Source of the DNA: Octopus sinensis
Taxonomy: Eukaryota
Assembly (NCBI RefSeq): GCF_006345805.1
Contig: NW_021832335.1
Location: forward strand, 1 to 30,941
Reading direction: 5' to 3'
Length of the DNA stretch: 30,941 nucleotides
Below the pieces are notes generated by a model, which was not told the DNA's origin, made no database searches, and saw nothing but the letters and a program-made list of their open reading frames with translations. Both the position numbers and the translations under genes were made by a program. Shown in pieces: positions 3,013 to 28,825 of the stretch (its first letter is position 1; every line of letters begins with the position of its first letter).

Positions 3013-3553
3013 TAAGGCTACGAGCTATCAGAACGGTTACTTGTTATGAGAGAATTCTGAACACCCCCCACTTGATCAAGGTGGACTAACCGATTACAAT
3101 AAACAAGAACTGAATAAACTATCAGGAACGTAGCTAACGATGTTAGTTCGACCGTGTCGGTTTACCGTGTCAGTTCGTCTTGCGTTGGTTTAATAGTCGA
3201 GAGTTGAACGGTGAATACTGAGTATCATACCTATGTTCGAGTAGTATGGAGTGCATTCTGTGTTAACATATATTTCTGCAATAGATTATTTTGATGTTTT
3301 GCAAACAACTTACACATGCGAGTACTACCAGTCGAGAGCTCCGCAAACCAGAAGCCAGCAAATGTATGTGGTCACCAGGTGAGAATTCGCGCCGTTTTGG
3401 GGCCTACCTCTCGACAGCATCAATGTGCATCGCCCATCCCAACCCCCACTGAAATGAGGCCCCACTTGCTAGATCAACTGGTTATCAAATAAAGCTCAAT
3501 ATTCTCCCAGCCATCGCTCATCGTCTCTTTTTAACCAAATCCAGTGGCTATCC

Positions 3554-3624
3554 TGTAGGTGTAGGTAGTGTAGGTGGTGTAGGTAGTGTAGGTGGTGTAG
3601 GTAGTGTAGGTGGTGTAGGTAGTG
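3554..3624. repeat. 9/18-bp tandem repeat (GTAGGTAGT/GTAGGTGGT)
   Basis: Alternating 9-mers are directly visible. Confidence 0.9.
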
Positions 3625-3807
3625 TCAGTGATGATGGCTGTGGTGGTGGCGATGGTAATGGTGTTGATGGTAGGAATGGGGAAAATGGTTGTGGTGATGG
3701 TGATGGTTATGGTGGTGGTGGTTGTGATGTTGGTGGTGGTTACGGTGGTGGTGAAGGTGGTGGTGGCGGTGATGATGGTGATGGTAGTCGTGATGGCGAT
3801 GGTGTTG

Positions 3808-4780
3808 GTGGTGATGGCGTTGGTGATGGTGTTGGTGGTGGTGGTGATGGTGTTGGTGCTGATGGTGTTGGTGGTGATGGCGTTGGTGATGGTGTTGGTA
3901 GTGGTGATGGTGTTTGTGTGCTGATGGTGTTGGTGGTGATGGCGTTGGTGATGGTGTTGGTGGTGTGATGGTGTTGGTGCTGATGGTGTTGGTGTGATGG
4001 CGTTGGTGATGGTGTTGGTGGTGGTGATGGTGTTGGTGCTGATGGTGGTGGTGGTGATGGCGTTGGTGATGGTGTTGGTGGTGGTGATGGTGTTGGTGCT
4101 GATTGTTTGGTGGTGATGGCGTTGGTGATGGTGTTGTGGTGGTGATGGTGTTGGTGCTGATGGTGCTGGTGGTGATGGCGTTGGTGATGGTGTTGGTGTG
4201 TGATGGTGTGTGCTGAGGTGTTGGTGGTGATGGCGTTGGTGATGGTGTTGGTGGTGGTGATGGTGTTGGTGCTGATGGTGCTGGTGGTGATGGCGTTGGT
4301 GATGGTTGTGGTGGTGATGGTGTTGGTGCTGATGGTGCTGGTGGTGATGGCGTTGGTGATGGTGTTGGTGGTGGTGATGGTGTTGGTGCTGATGGTGTTG
4401 GTGGTGATGGCGTTGGTGATGGTGTTGGTGGTGGTGATGGTGTTGGTGCTGATGGTGTTGGTGGTGATGGCGTTGGTGATGGTGTTGGTGGTGGTGATGG
4501 TGTTGGTGCTGATGGTGCTGGTGGTGATGGCGTTGGTGATGGTGTTGGTGGTGGTGATGGTGTTGGTGCTGATGGTGTTGGTGGTGATGGCGTTGGTGAT
4601 GGTGTTGGTGGTGGTGATGGTGTTGGTGCTGATGGTGTTGGTGGTGATGGCGTTGGTGATGGTGTTGGTGGTGGTGATGGTGTTGGTGCTGATGGTGCTG
4701 GTGGTGATGGCGTTGGTGATGGTGTTGGTGGTGGTGATGGTGTTGGTGCTGATGGTGTGGGGTGATGGCGTTGGTGATGG
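3808..4780. repeat. 60-bp minisatellite, about 16 copies, built from GGT/GAT/GTT triplets
   Basis: Unit GTGGTGATGGCGTTGGTGATGGTGTTGGTGGTGGTGATGGTGTTGGTGCTGATGGTGTTG. Near-perfect 60-bp periodicity over 4321-4740, with small indels further left. Confidence 0.95.
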
Positions 4781-5145
4781 TAATGTTGGTGGTCATGATA
4801 ATGGAGATGGTAATGGTGGTGATGGTGGGAATGGGAGATGACGATGGTGGTGGTAGTGGTTATGATGGTGGTGATAATGTCGGTGGTGGCGGTGGTGGTG
4901 ATGGTGGCGTCGGTACCTGTGATCCCGCCTTCGCCGTCTTCACCATTTTAACAATCGTTTAGCTAATAACAATAAAAGCAGTTAGGGCGGATGTCTATGT
5001 AGGAGAGAGATAGTGGCTCCGGTGTGGTGTAAATAGAGCATGGGTGCGGTATAGGCAGTGGTATAGGCAGTTGTGGCGGTGGTGGTTGTCGTGACAGCTC
5101 TCATTTCTAATTCATCCACCGCATGCACACACGCACACACACGCA

Positions 5146-6750: not shown

Positions 6751-7219
6751 GGCTGCAGCGGGGGTAGCGGCAGCGGCAGTCGCGATGGCAAAATTCTCGG
6801 AAGTCATTCGAAAAAATAAAATAAAATAAAACAAAAACGAATCGGAAAAATGAACCTAAGGATGCTGGCGAAAGTGAGTAAACAGTTCAAAGAGAAAACT
6901 TGCCACTCATTTAGGATTTTCAAATTTTCTTCGTACCGCCAATGTACAAGTGACACATCATTTAAACATGCTACAGGAAGATTTATAGGTAGGTGAAGAG
7001 TTTTGTCACCAAGAAAGGGGCTCCGATAATGGAGTAGGGGCACATGAGAGACACGCCGGTGGCAGTGCAGAACACAATTTCAATTTTAACGTAGGCGCGG
7101 ATCCCTAGTCTATACATGAATCACTCACACTCTCTTGTCACATTGAAGCATGCCCATCGCCAAAAGGATGCACTGGACGGCACTGCCCTCCCCTCACTAT
7201 TCAATGGTTTCCCCTCAAA

Positions 7220-7450
7220 GGCGGCGAGCTAGCAGAATCGTTAGCACGTCGGGCGAAATGCTTAGCGGTATTTCGTCTGCCGTTACGTTGTGAGTTCAAA
7301 TTCCGCCGAGGTCGACTTTGCCTTTCATCCTTTCGGGGTCGATAAATTAAGTACCAGTTAAGCACTGGGGTCGATATAATCGACTTAATACCTATGTCTG
7401 TCCATGTTTGTCTCCTCTATGTTCAGCCCCTTGTGGGTAATAAAGAAATA
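7220..7450 (+). mobile_element. Full-length family B SINE with Tx1-like tail A and 14-bp target-site duplication
   Basis: Head GGCGGCGAGCTAGCAGAATCGTTAGC, B-box GAGTTCAAATTCC, core GTCGACTTTGCCTTTCATCCTTTCGGGGTCGATAAATTAAGTACCAG. Perfect direct repeat GGTTTCCCCTCAAA at 7206-7219 and 7451-7464. Confidence 0.93.
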
Positions 7451-7622
7451 GGTTTCCCCTCAAATTTATAGTGATACACTTATTTCGAAATTCCACTTTA
7501 ATTTTAGTACAAATTAATGTCCACGCAGAAATAGAATGCCCTGTTGATCTTCCTGTAGAAACTTTACAGGACATTCTATTCCAATCTCCTTCAACCATTT
7601 ATCTATATCTTCGCTTACTGTG

Positions 7623-7888
7623 TGGGGGCACGTGGCTTAGTGGTTAGGGTGTCAGCATCATGATCGTAAGATTGTGATTTCGATTCCTGGACCGGGTAAT
7701 GCGTTGGGTTCTTGAGCAAAACACTTCATTTCACGTTGCTCCAGTCCACCCAGCTGGCAAAAATGAGTAACGCTGCGATGGACTGGCGTCCCGTCCAGCT
7801 GGGGAAAACATACGCCATAGAAACCGGGAAACCTGGCCCATGAGCCTGGCTAGGCTTTAAAAGGGCGCATTTATTTTATTTTATTTTT
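7623..7888 (+). mobile_element. tRNA-derived SINE, family C (CORE-like), with (TTTAT)n-type tail
   Basis: A-box TGGCTTAGTGG, B-box-like TTTCGATTCC, CORE-like CTTGAGCAAAACACTT. Imperfect flanking repeat GCTTACTGT (7613) / GCTTACGGT (7889). Confidence 0.85.
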
Positions 7889-8001
7889 GCTTACGGTCCC
7901 AATGCACCAATTATTATAGACACAACCTTAACAATTTCCATTTTACAAATTCTTGCAATTTGAAATTTTGAGATATTGTATCTTTTCTTTTATTTTTACA
8001 G

Positions 8002-8315
8002 TGCATGCCATCGAAGTGACACTGGGGTACAAATATACGAAACCCTATATTCAAATCCTGACTGATAAGGGCACAACAGGCACATGCATAACAACCATAT
8101 GTGTGTGAGGTGGTAAGCTCATATCAAGTTAAACAGCATATGACCTTGCTGGTGGGACCAAGTTAGAATTTTCGTTGGGCCACGTAACGCATCCCGTTCA
8201 AAAGGACCCTGAATAAGGGTTGTTTTAAGATGGTGAGCGAAACACTCGTGTGTCCAGAGGTGAATTATTCAAACCCCAAATATTTCCTCTCAGCATATGG
8301 CCATGATGCTCCATC
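8002..8315. mobile_element. Fragment of an unclassified interspersed repeat
   Basis: Resembles a repeat I recall from octopus DNA (GTGCATGCCATC.AAGTGACACTGGGGT...CCCTGAATAAGGGTTG). There is no second copy in the window, so this is unverified. Confidence 0.45.
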
Positions 8316-8507
8316 CACCATCGCTTGACACCCGACGTTGGTGTGTTTACGTCCCCGTAACTTAGCAGTTCGGCTGAGAGACCGATAGAATAAGTACTAG
8401 GCTTACAAAGAATAAGTCAAGTCCTGGGGTTGATGTGTTCGACTAAAGGTGATGCTCCAGCATGGCCGCAGTCAACATGACTGAAACAAATAAAAGAATA
8501 AAAGAAT
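8316..8507 (+). mobile_element. 3' half of a family A SINE
   Basis: Aligns with 765-943 (GTGTGTTTACGTCCCCGTAAC...GTACTAGGCTT...GATGTGTTCGACTAAA...TGCTCCAGC...TGACTGAA) and is followed by (ATT)n to 8613. Confidence 0.88.
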
Positions 8508-8557
8508 TATTATTACTATTATCATGAATCATCATCATCATCTTCCTCCTCATCATC

Positions 8558-18230: not shown

Positions 18231-18573
18231 TTACTGCCATATTACATACATACTTAGATACACATGCTCATATATACATACGTATGCATAGTCATTGTTC
18301 GTTAAAGAATAGAACACCCAAAAACGCATCTGGAAGAGAGGGGGAAAATATGAATGCCAGAGAATGGATAAAAGAGTGAAGTTAAGAATATGAAACATAA
18401 TAGGAATCAGAATAAGTGGAAAGTATAAAGTAAATAAATACACAAGTATATTAATAACGAGGTGGAATAAATTATTGAATAGTTTACACTGAAGTGAAGT
18501 GAAGAGGAGAAACGTAAAACGAGGCAGAGTATTCGATAGCAGACTGGGAAGTGAAAATGCATCTATCTGTCTG

Positions 18574-18661
<88 letters not shown>

Positions 18662-18662
<1 letters not shown>

Positions 18663-18856
18663 TTTTTATTTTTTTTATTTAAAAAATTTTTTTTTGTTCT
18701 TCTTTTTCCCTTTTACGATCCCTCTTGATCGAAACTAACGCTACCACCCCGTTTTTTGTTTTCCTTTTGTTTTTTGTTTTTTTCATCCCCCAAAAGAAAG
18801 CTCTACCTTGTAACTGTCCCATCTGTTTGCAGCCCTGTGTGGCCAATAAAGAAACT
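18662..18856 (+). mobile_element. Tx1-like LINE, 5'-truncated copy 1 (3' UTR only)
   Basis: Homologous to about 20850-20991 (CCCTTTTACGATCCC...AAAGCTCTACCTTGTAAC...AGCCCTGTGTGGCCAATAAAGAAAC). Confidence 0.9.
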
Positions 18857-18874
18857 TATCTATCTATCTAATCT

Positions 18875-18906
<32 letters not shown>

Positions 18907-19029
18907 CTATCTATCTATATTGTCCATCCATCCATCCGCCCGTCCATCATCTATCTATCTATCTCTGTCTATGTATGTATGTATGTATGTATGTATCTCT
19001 ATCTATCTATTTATCTGTCTGTCTCTCTG

Positions 19030-19075
<46 letters not shown>

Positions 19076-19126
19076 CATCCATCCATCCATCCATCAACCC
19101 ATCCATCCATCCATCCATCCATCATC

Positions 19127-19174
<48 letters not shown>

Positions 19175-19180
<6 letters not shown>

Positions 19181-19344
19181 TTTTTGTTCTTTTTTCCCTT
19201 TTACGATCCCTTTTGATCGAAAACCTACGCCACCTTTCTTTTTGTTTCTTTTGTTTTTTGTTTTTTTTTCACCCCCCAAAAGAAAAGCTCTACCTTGTAA
19301 CTTGTCCCATCTGTGTGCAGCCCTGTGTGGGTAATAAAGAAACT
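19175..19344 (+). mobile_element. Tx1-like LINE, 5'-truncated copy 2 (3' UTR only)
   Basis: Same 3' UTR sequence ending AATAAAGAAAC, with TATC repeats on both sides. Confidence 0.9.
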
Positions 19345-19374
19345 TATCTATCTATATCTATCTATCTATATATA

Positions 19375-19447
<73 letters not shown>

Positions 19448-20634
19448 CGGTTGAGTTGCTCGGGGTCTGGTTTGGTCCGGACCTCCAAGTGGAGAAGAAC
19501 TGGAACGAGATAACGAGTAGGGTGGTCACTCTCGCCCGGCAATGGGCGAGAGGAAACTGTCCCTAAAAGGTCGAGCGAGGTGGCGAACACGTACATCGCG
19601 TCCGTCATCTACTACCGCCTGACCGTCGTACCTTGTCCCGACCCTACCATCACCAAAACTACAACGCATTCTCTTTCGCTTCTTGTGGAAAGGATGCGTC
19701 CCGATGGTCAGGCGATCCTTTGCTGTGAACACCCGTTAAAAGGAGGCTGGGCATGCCGTGGTTGATGATGCGCAGACACGCGCGCTGAGACTGCGACATC
19801 TCTGGCTCTATGTTGACGACGGTGAACAGGTGTGGTCGCCGTTTGTGAGGCACGCTTTCCCGCAGCTCGTCTCCATGACGAACTGCAGTCGTGGATCAAA
19901 AAGAGGAGGCCGAGAAGGGCGAATGGCACCGCGAGTGTCGCGTTGCTCTCAAGCAACTCTGCCGTCCTGGGTCGACCTTAAGTGACTTCAACACAACCAA
20001 AGCATTCTATAGGGGTTTAGTGGAGGGGAGGTACGACGACGGGCTCGGGGCGAACCTGGACGTCGACGAGGAGTACCTGACCCGCCTGTTCAGGACGACT
20101 TTCGGGTCAGGGCCCATGGACAACTTCCAGAGATCCCTGGCCTGGCAGTGCTACCGAGAAGCGCTACCCGTTCGGGATAAGCTCTACAGACACGGCTCGA
20201 GAAACTCGGGGCCGACAGCCCGAGATGCGGTCAGAGCGACGAAACCGCTCTGCACGCAATCGTGCAGTGTCCAACAATTTCCGACCCGTGGGCTTATGTC
20301 GAACAACTGCTGTCACGTGTGGGACGAGTCGGTTTATCAGCTGAGTCTATCGTCAATAGTGTCACGCCTCCTCCTTCAAACGGGAAGGAAGAGTATTTTC
20401 ATCATCCTTGTGGCTATGGCGAAAGAATGTATCTGGTGGACGCGTCTGAAAGGATTGGAGACAAACACTTTCCTCTCTGGTCAATCTCTCATCAGCTTCT
20501 TCAAGTACCACTTGAAAAGGAAAGTGAGAGTAGAGAGGCAAGTTTTGTCTAGCGAATGTTTTTAAAAAAAGATGGGCAATGTAGTAAGATGGCACGTATG
20601 ATATGACGGAGCCACCTTGAGCATAATCCTATGA
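19448..20634 (+). pseudogene. Frameshifted C-terminal part of ORF2 (end of RT/thumb region plus CCHC zinc knuckle)
   Basis: Joining frames gives VELLGVWFG...KNW...RKLSLKGRA.VANTYIASVIYY...LQRILFRFLWKG...PLKGGLGMP...LAWQCYREALPV...(C)PRCGQSDETALHAIVQC...CIWWTR. These match L1/Tx1 ORF2 motifs (YLG, LSxxGR, FLW, GGLG, CX2CX8HX4C, IWxxR). There are multiple 1-nt indels; the first zinc-knuckle Cys is restored across one of them. Confidence 0.9.
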
Positions 20635-20991
20635 ACCCAGAAATTGAAAACAGAGATTTGCTTATTTGCAAAAAAAAAAAAAAAAGAAATATAAAATGTG
20701 ACTTCATGACCGAGGTTACCCTGGTCTTTTCCGTAGGCTTTTCTTCCACGGGTAAACCTACCTGTCCTCCCCTTTACCTCATATTGACATTTCTGTGATA
20801 ACGATCCCTATTGATCAATTTTTTTTCCTCTCCACCCTTTTTTTAACCCCCCCCTTTTTTTTGTCCTTTTTCTTTCCTTTTACGATCCCTTTTGATGGAA
20901 AACCACCACTCTCCTTTTTTTACCCCAAAAGAAAAGCTCTACCTTGTAATTGTTCTATCTGTGTGCAGCCCTGTGTGGCTAATAAAGAAAC
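19448..20991 (+). mobile_element. Tx1/L1-clade non-LTR retrotransposon, 5'-truncated copy 3 (~1.5 kb)
   Basis: GC-rich ORF2 remnant plus T-rich 3' UTR (20635-20991) ending AATAAAGAAAC. Abrupt 5' junction with (TATC)n. Confidence 0.92.
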
Positions 20992-21005
20992 ATATCTACT
21001 TTATA

Positions 21006-21069
<64 letters not shown>

Positions 21070-21098
21070 CTTCTATCTATCTATCTATCTATCTATCT

Positions 21099-21198
21099 TT
21101 TTTTTTTTTTCTTTGTTTTTTGTTCTTCATCCCCAAAAGAAAAGCTCACCTTGTAACTTGTCCCATCTGTGTGCAGCCTGTGTGGCCAATAAAGAAAC

Positions 21199-21199
<1 letters not shown>
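21099..21199 (+). mobile_element. Tx1-like LINE, 5'-truncated copy 4 (last ~100 nt)
   Basis: CCCCAAAAGAAAAGCTCACCTTGTAACTTGTCCCATCTGTGTGCAGCC...AATAAAGAAAC between TATC tracts. Confidence 0.9.
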
Positions 21200-21243
<44 letters not shown>

Positions 21244-22065
21244 ATATCTATCTATCTATCTATCTACCTACCTATCTATCTATCCTTCTATCTATCTATT
21301 TAATACCTACAGCACTCCATCATTCCCTTTATTTTCTTCTGTATGACCTATCACAACCCTACTCAGGGCTTTAGCCCAATCACTTTCACCGCACGTCTGA
21401 AATGCAGTTCCAATCGCCCAGTAATAGTCGAGATCGAGATTTTCTTAGAAAATTTAATTGTCTAAAGAAACCAAGCTTTCCTTCAGCTGTCGGAACATAG
21501 ACAACATATAGGGCTGAAGTTAATGTTTTCTATGCCATTCGCATCTACCTACGTTCAGTTCGGGCCATGAATATAGCTCGTTCCTTGAAATCAAAGAATT
21601 TCATATACCTTCACCTGATCCAGACATACCCCGAAATGCGAATGTTTAATTATCGTCAGAACTATGTGGTGGTGCATGCAAGCCAGAGATCCCGGGGTCG
21701 CTGTTGATTCCCGCATTTACGTCTAGGGACAAGAGATTCTCCAGGAAGCGACTGTGCTTCGTTGATAAATCCTGGTCACTACGAACACAGCTCTCGTTAT
21801 GGTCATGTTTGTCGGAGAAAAGAAAATATACAATTTAATTAATTTGTCCTTATAGAAAGATTCATGGTCCGGCCACCGCATTTGTTAAGACCGGGTCTCT
21901 TTCTAAAAAGTCGATTATCAAAAACGTAACTTATATTTTAGGCGTCTCTAAGTTCGTGAGTCAGGCTTTTGCAAACTCAAACTCTGTTATTGATTTATGG
22001 GAGAGCTTTCTTAACCCTTCATCATTTGGATCAGTATATTATTATTATTATTATTAATAATCTCA

Positions 22066-22218
22066 TGAGCTCCAATTCCGTGGAGGTCGACTTTGCCTTT
22101 CGTCCTTTCGGGTTCGGTAAATTAAGTACCGGTTTAGCACTGGGGTCGATGTGATCGGATCGACTGTCCCCTTCCCCACATAATCCAGGCTTTGTACCTA
22201 TAGTAGAAAGGACTATTA
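22066..22218 (+). mobile_element. 5'-truncated family B SINE with tail B
   Basis: Family B core followed by CCCCTTCCCC...AGGCTTTGTACCTATAGTAGAAAGGACTATT. Confidence 0.88.
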
Positions 22219-22237
22219 ATCTATTGGTCACGTGTAA

Positions 22238-22820
22238 AGCGGCGAGCTGGCAAAATCGTTAGCACACCGGACGGAATGCTTTGCGGTATTTCGTCTGCCG
22301 TTACGTTCTGAGTTCAAATTCCGCCGAGGTCGACTTTGCCTTTCATCCTTTCGGGGTCGATAAATTAAGTACCAGTTACGCACTGGGGTCGATATAATCG
22401 ACTTAATCCGTTTGTCTGTCCGTGTTTCTCCTCTCTGTGTTTAGCTCATTGTGAGTAGTAAAGATATAGGTATTTCGTCTGCCGTTACGTTCTGAGTTCA
22501 AATTCCACCGAGGTCGACTTTGCTTTCATCCTTTCGGGGTCGATAAATTAAGTACCAGCTACGCACTGAGGTCGATATTATCGACTTAATCCGTTTGCCT
22601 GTCCTTGTTTGTCCCCTCTGTGTTTAGCCCCTTGTGGGTAGTTAAAGAAATAGGTATTTCATTCGTTTTGATGTTCTGAGTTCAAATTCCGCTCAGATCG
22701 AATTTTCCTTTCATTCTTTCGGGGGTCGATAAAATGAGTACCAGCTAAACACTGGGATCGTTGTAATCAATTTTCATCCCCTCTCCCGAGATTACTAGCT
22801 TCGTGTCAAAACTTGAAACC
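22238..22820 (+). mobile_element. Head-to-tail array of three family B SINE units
   Basis: Units at 22238-22468 (full, tail A), 22469-22652 (starts at GGTATTTC, tail A) and 22653-22820 (starts at GGTATTTC, more diverged, tail-B type). Confidence 0.92.
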
Positions 22821-22963: not shown

Positions 22964-23770
22964 GGCGGTGAGCTGGCAGTAACGTTAGCACGCGAGGCGA
23001 AATGCTAAGCGGCATTTCGCCTGCCGCTACGCTCAGAGTTCAAATTCCGCCGAGGTCGACTCTGCCTTTCATCCTTTTGGGGTCGATTAAATAAGTACCA
23101 GTTACGCACTAGAGTCGATATAATCGACTTAATCCGTTTGTCTGTGCTTCTTTGTCGTCTCTGTGTTTAGCCTCTTGTGGGTAGTAAAGAAATAGGTATT
23201 TCGTCTGCCTTTACGTTCTGAGTTCAAATTCTGCCGAGGTCGACTTTGCCTTTCATCCTTTCGATGTCGATGAAATAAGTACCAGTCACGCACTGGGATC
23301 GATATATTCTACTTAATCCGTTTGTCTGTCCTTTGTTTGTTCCCTCTGTGTTTATGCCCTTGTGGGCAGTAATGAAATCAGAAACGTTAGCATGCCGGGC
23401 GAAACGCTTAGCAGTATTTCGTCTGTCTTTAGGCTCTGAGTTCAAATTCCGCCGAGGTCAACTTTGTCCTTCATCCTTTCGGAGTCGATAAATTAAGTAC
23501 GAGTTACACACTGGGATCGATGTAATCGACTTAATCCCTTTGTCCTTGTTTGTCTTCTATGTGTTTAGCCCCTTGTGGGCAGTAAAGAAATAATAAACGT
23601 TAGCATGCCGGCGAAACACTTAGCGGTCTTTACGTTTTGAATTCGACTTTCCCTTTCATCCTTTCGGGGTCGATAAATTAAGTACCGGATGCGTACTGGA
23701 GTAGATGTAATCGACTGGATGTCCTCCCCCAAAATTTCGGGCCTTGTGACTAGAGTAGAAAAGGAATTAT
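22964..23770 (+). mobile_element. Head-to-tail array of four family B SINE units
   Basis: Units at 22964-23194, 23195-23380 and 23381-23592 (all tail A) and 23593-23770 (internally deleted, tail B). Confidence 0.92.
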
Positions 23771-23980
23771 AACGGGTAAAGTGACTTTATCAGGAGAAAC
23801 ACCTTTCGCCTGCCTCATTGCTTTTCCTTCGCCTTATATGAAAGAATTGGCAAAAGTTCCACATACTTTAGACTGGGAATAGAGTGACTTTGTACTCTTT
23901 TATTCAGAAGGAAACCACATACCTATCGGACGAAAATTTTGCGATTCCATATGTGACTAAAGTATTTTTCAGTATATATA

Positions 23981-24130
23981 GGTACAGTTGTGGCTCTGTG
24001 GTAAGAAGTTTGCTTCCTTCGCAACCGTACGGTTTCGGTTTCAGGATCGTTGTGTGACATCTTAGGCAATTGTCTTCTACTATAGCTTCGGGCAAACCAA
24101 AACTTTGCGAACGGATTTGGTAGAAAAGAG
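23981..24130 (+). mobile_element. Diverged family A SINE 5' part followed by (TG)n
   Basis: TGGCTCTGTGGTAAGAAGTTTGCTTCC...TCTTCTACTATAGC...CCAAAAC aligns with 551-690. (TG)n at 24158-24256. Confidence 0.8.
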
Positions 24131-27483: not shown

Positions 27484-27589
27484 CGTTATGGCATGTAGTT
27501 ATGTCCTTGTATAACGTTGATATATGCTAACTTGATGTTAAAATATATGGTTCCATATCTTTCTATCCTTTTTGGTACATATAATTACT

Positions 27590-27976
27590 TTTGGATTGGA
27601 AGCACTCCGTCGGTTACGACGATGAGGGATCCGGTTGATCCGAATCAACGGAACAGCCTGCTCGTGAAATTAACGTGTAGTGGCTGAGCACTCCACAGAC
27701 ACGTGTACCCTTAACGTAGTTCCTCGGGGATATTCAGCGTGACACAGAGAGTGACAAGCCGGCCCTTTGAAATACAGGTACAACAGAAGAGAAGTAGAGT
27801 GAGAGAAAGTTGTGTGAAAGAGTACAGCAGGGATCACCACCATCCCCTGCCGGAGCCTCGTGGAGCTTTAGGTTTTTCGCTCAATAAACACTCACAACGC
27901 CCGGTCTGGGAATCGAAACCGCGATCTTATGACCGCGAGTCCGCTGCCCTAACCACTGGGCCATTGCGCCTCCACT
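27590..27976 (-). mobile_element. Full-length tRNA-derived SINE, family D, with 11-bp target-site duplication
   Basis: The minus strand begins GGAGGCGCAATGGCCCAGTGGTTAGGG (A-box), has GGTTTCGATTCC (B-box) and ends in TCCAATCCAAA. Direct repeat ATATAATTACT at 27579-27589 and 27977-27987. Confidence 0.9.
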
Positions 27977-28825
27977 ATATAATTACTACTACGTAATCAA
28001 AAATGATGATAGTCTTTTGAAATTATTATGAACGTTGCATGTGTATAAATCCGCTGAAGATATCGTTAAAGAATTTCTTGTGTAAAGGTTCAGCACACTG
28101 CGTGGAAGTATACCTGAGTCGTTAAAAACACAATTTTACCTTAACCTTTACACTCATAATTATAAACCACAACATTATATTATAAATAGAGAATTTTCTG
28201 TCATCAAACACGAAAGCTTTTAGTTTTTACTTCTAACATTTTTAGCCGTCGACGGAAAGGTATCATAATGGATATCAAAACTCAGATACAAATTATGAAA
28301 TTGCTTATTTAAGAAGGTAACTTTGCAAGCACTTGATTTTGGTCCCAATGTTCAGTCCGGGATGATCTAATTTCTCTCATTCATCCTTTCTTTCCCTTCT
28401 CTGTTTCCCTCTGTATATATATATAACAGAGAAAAAGCCAGCAAGAATAAAACAGCAACGTGAGGACATGTCACATGCAAATTATTAATTATATACACGG
28501 AGAAGGCAATGAGTAGTTGTTTTATATTTCGAGCATAGCTCCTCTTTTGATAAAGGTAAAACGGGAAAGTCCAAAGTCAGAAAAAGGAATAAAAATGTTA
28601 CCAATAGTCCATGTACAGTTCCATATATAAACACATATATAGATATGCGTGTATATATATATATTTTATATGGATATATACATAAATAGATACAAACGTA
28701 TCTTACGATACACATTCGACGCTTCTAAAAAATCATATGTAAGATTGTTCATAAACTCACGTGGTTGTTACGTATATATATATATACATAAATTTATACA
28801 TATATACAGACACATACATACATAC

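Follow-up and report, generated by a model that had tools for sequence, protein, structure and literature searches.

Stringent pairing of a short interspersed element (SINE) with a long interspersed element (LINE) is known. In UnaSINE/UnaL2 and ZfL2 (PMC3747384, PMC4176376), the 3' end is shared, the terminal stem-loop displays compensatory changes and insertions carry no poly(A). The same features are found for a 233-bp SINE, whose tail type is called tail A here, in a stretch of 30,941 nucleotides from Octopus sinensis (contig NW_021832335.1 of assembly GCF_006345805.1, positions 1 to 30,941, forward strand; hereafter the window). The alignments presented below show homology between the last ~45 bases of this SINE and the 3' terminus of a Tx1-type LINE lineage that targets (TATC)n. 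The octopus pair differs from those systems in its far smaller hairpin and in having a putative partner from the L1/Tx1 group and not from L2, CR1 or RTE.

An L1-group hairpin end of ~45 nt is likewise shared with a tRNA SINE in maize (ZmSINE2 and ZmSINE3 with LINE1-1_ZM) and Chlamydomonas (SINEX-3_CR with L1-1_CR) (PMC3472496, PMC3747384); those pairs are plant and algal, whereas the present one is animal. The crocodilian SINEU is, like the octopus SINE, inferred to be mobilized by a Tx1 element, Tx1-Mar (PMC4494074). That link consists of a shared target and shared 5' heads, with a poly(A) end, whereas in the octopus it is the 3' tail that SINE and LINE have in common, at different targets. 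Kibi, Koshi and the crocodilian microsatellite-specific Tx1 elements (PMC4494074) resemble the octopus LINE in having a microsatellite at both junctions; in the cephalopod the microsatellites concerned are (TATC)n and (ATT)n.

L1-tailed SINEs make up only 3 of the 58 pairs surveyed, and Table 1 of the survey holds neither a Tx1 nor a mollusc pair (PMC3472496, PMC3747384); the SINE partners described in bivalves are CR1, CR1-Zenon, L2 and Nimb (PMC11481361). No Tx1-derived SINE tail appears in the text portions covered from PMC3472496, PMC3747384, PMC4494074, PMC4824008, PMC4758252, PMC5786205, PMC11481361, PMC4176376, PMC13282606, PMC8967140, PMC3531059, PMC6530143 and PMC7265360. An earlier note on the window had called such a pairing uncommon, and a Tx1-tailed SINE is indeed unrecorded in this literature, within which a Tx1-type partner identified through a shared 3' tail is new. 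The scope of this statement is the paper texts; Ohshima and Okada 1994, Repbase, Dfam and the supplements may already note the match.

The tail-A SINE and its match to a LINE 3' end

The features that carry the argument are the following, with SINE positions numbered from window 7218:

7218..7450, plus strand: SINE monomer with tail A; tRNA-like head, central domain and LINE-type tail ending AAAGAAATA
7206..7219, plus strand: 5' copy of the 14-bp target-site duplication (TSD), its last two A's overlapping the SINE start
7451..7464, plus strand: 3' copy of the 14-bp TSD, beginning GGT directly after the tail
7408..7448, plus strand: tail stretch with homology to the 3' end of Tx1 (19302-19342; 35/41 nt)
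7426..7438, plus strand: predicted hairpin; 4-bp stem GCCC/GGGT, loop CTTGT
7267..7275, plus strand: SINE position 50 (GGTATTTCG), the restart site of tandem units after a GGGT-type tail
18690..18856, plus strand: isolated 3'-end fragment of the (TATC)n Tx1 lineage, within TATC repeats
19180..19344, plus strand: isolated 3'-end fragment with a private GGGT variant, the end quoted in the earlier note
19448..20992, plus strand: 5'-truncated Tx1/L1-type LINE; frameshifted C-terminal part of open reading frame 2 (ORF2) and 3' untranslated region (UTR), (TATC)n at both junctions
21093..21199, plus strand: isolated 3'-end fragment of the same (TATC)n Tx1 lineage

Being short, interspersed, present in more than 100 copies and flanked by TSDs, the element is a SINE. 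The 24-base end of its tail has 50,328 exact matches in the genome, a pattern that leaves out perfect position-50 junctions. In a random sample of 1 Mb, taken at 100 fixed places of the 2.72-Gb assembly, 74 of 173 core-bearing matches carried tail A and the remainder carried tail B, tail C or an unclassified tail; extrapolation from 74 per Mb gives about 200,000 tail-A units. Motifs resembling A and B boxes are visible by eye in the head, for which ARAGORN and Rfam returned no tRNA or RNA-family match. The window SINE may be akin to the octopus CORE-SINEs OR1 and OR2 of Ohshima and Okada 1994, given its tRNA head, abundance, shared centre and alternative tails. OR1 and OR2 are named in PMC4758252 and PMC4824008, where the text portions covered give no partner LINE.

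The two strings on which the earlier note had based the homology are present letter for letter, the SINE tail at 22603-22650 and the LINE end at 19293-19342. The 17-mer that it had singled out is identical at 7432-7448 and 19326-19342, but the GGGTAAT letters within it are private to the 19.3-kb copy, since 1 of the ~50 TATC-lineage ends listed has them and the family otherwise has GGCT or GGCC. The alignments indicate that the true conserved unit is a motif of ~45 nt and not a perfect 17-mer. Similarly, positions 19293-19342 do represent 3'-end sequence of the lineage, but they belong to an isolated fragment of ~170 bp upstream of the ORF-bearing copy at 19448-20992. That copy's ORF2 part spans 19450-20631 (residues 751-1145 of an intact copy), and its own end matches the SINE tail less well, with a score of 41 against 52 for the fragment.

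With these corrections the homology stands. A blastn comparison of the SINE with the window matched the LINE end over 35/41 nt (85%, E = 2e-8). Local-alignment scores between SINE and LINE ranged from 41 to 52, the means for shuffled tails lay at 15-20, and for every one of the four pairings 0/3000 dinucleotide shuffles attained the score of the real tail. The SINE tail scores up to 55 against ends of the Tx1 lineage and 24-25 against a sister family, described below, that ends in (ATT)n. SINE and LINE also have a common stopping point, as had been claimed, each finishing two bases past AAAGAAA.

The predicted terminal hairpin

Tails A, B and C all contain a CTTGT loop closed by four pairs, the stems being GCCC/GGGY, AGGC/GCCT, TGGC/GCCA and TGCC/GGCA. 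With the scoring anchored on the loop only, which made 85 of the 173 SINE cores scorable, pairs 1-4 were paired in 91.8% of cells, compared with 65% when arms were shuffled between copies (maximum 73.8% in 2000 shuffles); the fifth stem position is mostly unpaired. Among the three tails the pair types swap between C-G and G-C and between G-Y, A-U and U-A, and in an alignment of 12 sequences, hand-picked and illustrative only, each of the four pairs shows double changes. Over three tail types the 4-bp stem below a CUUGU-type loop has been retained, with compensatory changes. Related hairpins occur in the LINEs, as GCC-CTTGT-GGC in the ATT family and AGCC-CTGTGT-GGCT in the TATC family. A plausible role for the hairpin is that of a predicted recognition element for a Tx1-type ORF2 protein.

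The (TATC)n LINE lineage and its relatives

Two intact copies of the LINE encode an ORF2 with an N-terminal APE endonuclease, a reverse transcriptase (RT) and a C-terminal zinc finger (PF03372, PF00078, PF13966), an architecture common to L1 and Tx1. A CCHC-type motif is visible in the frameshifted ORF1 of one copy (L037), in whose adjoining frame a Pfam scan found nothing. The best named match outside cephalopods is Xenopus Tx1 at 328 bits, compared with 196 bits for human L1, and the protein search also found an Argonauta protein with 65% identity. In an RT tree, a quick one built from an unfinished search with mammalian L1 left out, the L1 group split from the jockey/CR1/RTE-like rows at a support of 96. 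These comparisons place the LINE in the L1/Tx1 group, while the label Tx1, which the tree does not settle, would follow from the best hit, the domains and the microsatellite targeting.

All of the top 30 loci end in the same motif, and 29/30 of these 3' ends continue into (TATC)n; of the 5' junctions detected, 29/36 lie in (TATC)n. The presence of (TATC)n at both ends shows that the LINE targets this microsatellite. Tx1 copies of several ages are stacked head-to-tail in single (TATC)n tracts at L186:1-10000 (at least 5 copies), L031, L032 and window 18570-21300, and at L060:705 (minus strand) a single Tx1-lineage end runs into (TC)n, which may be one more variant of the target.

A sister family with 72.5% identity in the ORF2 portion that was aligned ends in (ATT)n (28/30 loci by pattern, one more by eye, one interrupted), has 5' junctions in (ATT)n in 4/7 cases and retains a related terminal hairpin. 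A supposed (ATC)n family (L175) was dropped when 9/10 of its matches proved to be ATT-family ends. The TATC and ATT families (L037, L083) share a second island of ~50 nt in the 3' UTR, 200-250 nt before the end (score 43, 0/1000 shuffles); this candidate second RNA signal is absent from the SINE. A motif shared by two such diverged families must be old in the LINE lineage. That the SINE and LINE ends merely converged on a poly(A) signal in a T/G-rich context, or that the LINE took its end from the SINE, is therefore hard to credit: the match is short and the LINE end does hold AATAAA, but half of the SINE copies have AGTAAA in its place, the dinucleotide shuffles never reach the score, and both the terminal motif and the second island are common to the two Tx1 families.

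It is older subfamilies of the TATC lineage, and not the young family in the window, whose ends come nearest to the SINE tail. A SINE-like LINE end has 269 exact matches, and 29/30 of those fetched were LINE ends, from subfamilies 66-89% alike upstream; these ends were chosen by pattern, so that their identity to the pattern holds by construction, and one pair at 100% is the same place twice.

Other LINE clades and element ages

Within the sample of LINEs compared, only ends of the Tx1/L1 type match the tail, and a better match in another clade did not emerge. Comparison of tail A with 15 non-Tx1 RT fragments from the random 1 Mb gave scores of 12-23 for their 3' regions, some of which may stop short of the true end, and comparison with 30 jockey/CR1-like RT loci gave 16-21. 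The 30 best PF00078 matches (L270-L299) are jockey/CR1-like and lie on unplaced contigs, with 0 SINE matches in ~110 kb where ~24 were predicted; these contigs possibly come from another organism, and the PF00078 search is therefore a weak control. An abundant RTE-like family (L049, L050, L054, L065, L170, L194, L218) carries tandem units inside a long 3' UTR and, where the end is in view, terminates in (ATG)n, unrelated to tail A.

Median divergence from the majority sequence is 4.7% at non-CpG sites (7% at all sites) for tail A and ~12-13% for tails B and C. Young TATC and ATT copies diverge by 1-2%, a value from top hits that is biased young, and older TATC groups, with 3-4 copies each, by 4-9%. 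The age ranges of SINE and LINE roughly overlap, within LINE samples that are small or top-hit-biased.

Composite SINEs

Besides the monomer, the window holds a truncated copy and two multi-unit composites:

22066..22218, plus strand: 5'-truncated SINE with the same head and core, tail B
22236..22820, plus strand: composite SINE; a full tail-A unit, a tail-A unit from position 50 (22469-22652) and a position-50 remainder with tail C
22964..23770, plus strand: composite SINE; 3 tail-A units (restarts at positions 50 and ~16) and a remainder with tail B, hairpin at 23739-23751

Genome-wide there are 26,908 exact junctions from tail to position 50, with GGGT in 98 of the first 100. Units of the GGGT and GGGC types alternate in one array (L146), each with its own junction type. 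A TSD around the whole composite was found by eye in three more multimers (L161, L188, L189), and multi-unit composites appear to move as single transcripts. Insertion of tail A into host SINEs at position 50, with retention of the host head, was considered and finds no support in these TSDs or in the letters at position 38, where the heads of 11/11 composites ending in tail B, tail C or an unclassified tail carry the A-type letter (one of the 11, L067, is a misfiled A-A dimer). Tail-A copies also occur antisense in the SINE core at a GGTACT site (L063:1781, minus strand; L147), which indicates self-insertion in the opposite orientation as well.

TSDs were found in only 3/14 monomers with tail B or C, and of 30 B/C hairpins examined for a LINE with such a tail, 3 lacked an upstream core and none of these resembled a LINE end.

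Target-site duplications and target choice

TSDs were scored in a mixed set of random, pattern-selected and window copies, with 13 composites followed by a SINE remainder set aside. They were present in 26/46 monomers and 2/9 multimers, with a median length of 16 bp (9-26), compared with 1/270 for mismatched flanks. The TSD begins exactly 2 nt past AAAGAAA in 17/28, and the preceding base is a pyrimidine in 17/17. LINE ends outside clear microsatellite included 3/14 with TSDs of 15-21 bp, which start 1-2 nt past AAAGAAA, in the register of the SINE.

The exact stopping point and the matching TSD register bear on a further alternative, in which a past template switch onto Tx1 RNA left the tail behind as a relic and the SINE now depends for its movement on another LINE or on relaxed recognition. 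The sample is rich in RTE-like and CR1/jockey-like elements, the targets of SINE and LINE differ and the hairpin is weak, all of which would suit such a history. However, the SINE stops where the LINE does, its stem has been kept by compensatory change over three tails, and neither poly(A) nor the terminal repeat of another LINE has been added to it, so that we regard a template switch as distinctly improbable.

SINE subfamilies differ in the base that comes directly after the tail. Within the random 1 Mb the ratio G:A is 29:5 for GGGT copies and 0:9 for GGGC copies (p = 4e-6), and in exact-tail-match rows counted by hand it is 34:3 and 1:20, respectively, rows starting with T being omitted from both counts. 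The bases that follow match the SINE's own positions 50 and 17, the tandem restart sites, over variable lengths. The same bases are present in the 5' TSD copy of monomers and were therefore already in the target before insertion. Since the first target bases track the SINE subfamily and match the internal tandem junctions, these data suggest pairing between read-through RNA and the strand that has been nicked. In older LINE copies the match to TATC is graded in the same way. In R2Ol, read-through bases that pair with the 28S target promote insertion (PMC6530143), and a few such bases would likewise aid insertion here; R2 has a strictly specific restriction-like endonuclease, whereas pairing is proposed here to decide in large part where an APE element and its SINE insert. 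The portions of the SART1 paper covered (PMC7265360) hold nothing bearing on pairing.

The same observations could be read differently, with the partner being another Tx1 family, a sister that is either extinct or not found and has an endonuclease with its own preference for RY|GGTA or RY|AGAA, different sisters serving different SINE subfamilies and RNA pairing playing a minor part. Sister families with different microsatellite flanks do exist (TATC, ATT and the one TC-flanked end), the SINE avoids (TATC)n, and the pyrimidine at -1 and purine at -2 cannot derive from RNA. Against this, two pattern searches for a LINE with the exact loop and ending of the SINE gave 1 match each, and protein searches with two cephalopod-like relatives, which scored the best 150 candidates (so that rare families may escape) and returned largely the same places, both put the (ATT)n family on top. 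The alternation of GGGT and GGGC units in one array, each with its own junction type, and the match to internal SINE sequence over variable lengths also speak against it. We judge this alternative unlikely.

A proposed partnership

The data presented above have led us to propose that the SINE is copied in trans by the ORF2 of the (TATC)n Tx1-type lineage, which would read the predicted hairpin, with read-through bases priming at the nick; we put the probability of this model at roughly 0.65. The tRNA-like head would drive Pol III transcription of the SINE, and the RNA would extend a few bases beyond AAAGAAAUA into the sequence following the source copy. The ORF2 protein would bind the 4-bp hairpin with its CUUGU-type loop just before the end, and the endonuclease would nick at weakly specific pyrimidine/purine steps. 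Annealing of the read-through bases to the nicked strand would then prime reverse transcription, yielding duplications of 9-26 bp and no poly(A). For the LINE the read-through would be (UAUC)n, resulting in homing to (TATC)n; for the SINE it would be the start of the tandem unit that follows (GGUAUUUCG or AGAAACG) or else (UA)n, leading to GGTA, AGAA or TATA sites.

A Tx1-type RT with stringent 3' recognition was the central suggestion of the earlier note. The specificity of the tail, the length and register of the TSDs and the covarying hairpin speak for it, and from them we infer stringent recognition of the tail by the Tx1 lineage; the suggestion is qualified by the closest ends being those of older subfamilies and by the unshared target.

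Several observations weigh against the proposed partnership. Foremost, (TATC)n follows the SINE in 0/50 copies, so that the target of the LINE is not common to the SINE, whereas SINEU shares the target of its partner (PMC4494074). TSDs are absent or consist of simple repeat only in 20/46 SINE monomers and 7/9 multimers, and the clear TSDs among non-microsatellite LINE ends are only the 3/14 given above. The TATC-family loop has 6 nt and a shifted register, the thermodynamic stability of the small hairpin shows no excess over shuffles (z from -1.6 to +1.7), and the covariation comprises about five family-level stem types, that is, few independent events, the A1 alignment being hand-picked. A LINE with the exact loop and ending of the SINE did not emerge from the two pattern searches, with their single match each, and this counts here too, as do LINE ages taken from few or top-hit-biased copies and a tree in which the LINE joins Xenopus Tx1 only within a 31-row group (SH-aLRT 88).

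A broader version of the partnership is more tentative, and we think it somewhat doubtful: tails A, B and C of the dominant octopus SINE superfamily might all be read by Tx1-lineage RTs through one 13-nt CUUGU hairpin, Tx1 might have driven much of the SINE expansion in octopus, and microsatellite specificity might be largely RNA-guided. In that version the read-through of whatever sequence lies beyond the source copy would select the landing site, and one enzyme would direct the LINE to (TATC)n but the SINE to stretches matching its own interior.

Other repeats in the window

A second, unrelated tRNA-headed SINE-like repeat lies at 7624-7868, with up to 24 matches in the 1-Mb sample. Further very abundant repeats (79-103 matches per Mb) occupy 562-943, 7998-8515 and 23950-24124, another interspersed repeat with 24 matches per Mb, apparently on the minus strand, is found at 27584-27988, and a long degenerate GGT-rich tandem tract spans 3517-4860.

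Implications

L1-group elements are the textbook 'relaxed' LINEs, which read poly(A). If the proposed partnership is true, the existence of an animal Tx1-type element that has both a stringent hairpin tail and a SINE as partner would lend weight to the view that stringent recognition is old in the L1 group. An engine for octopus SINEs would also be identified, and SINEs constitute 11.6% of the O. vulgaris assembly (PMC13282606). As intact ORF2 copies exist, recognition of the tail and the contributions of RNA-guided and endonuclease-guided targeting are directly testable.
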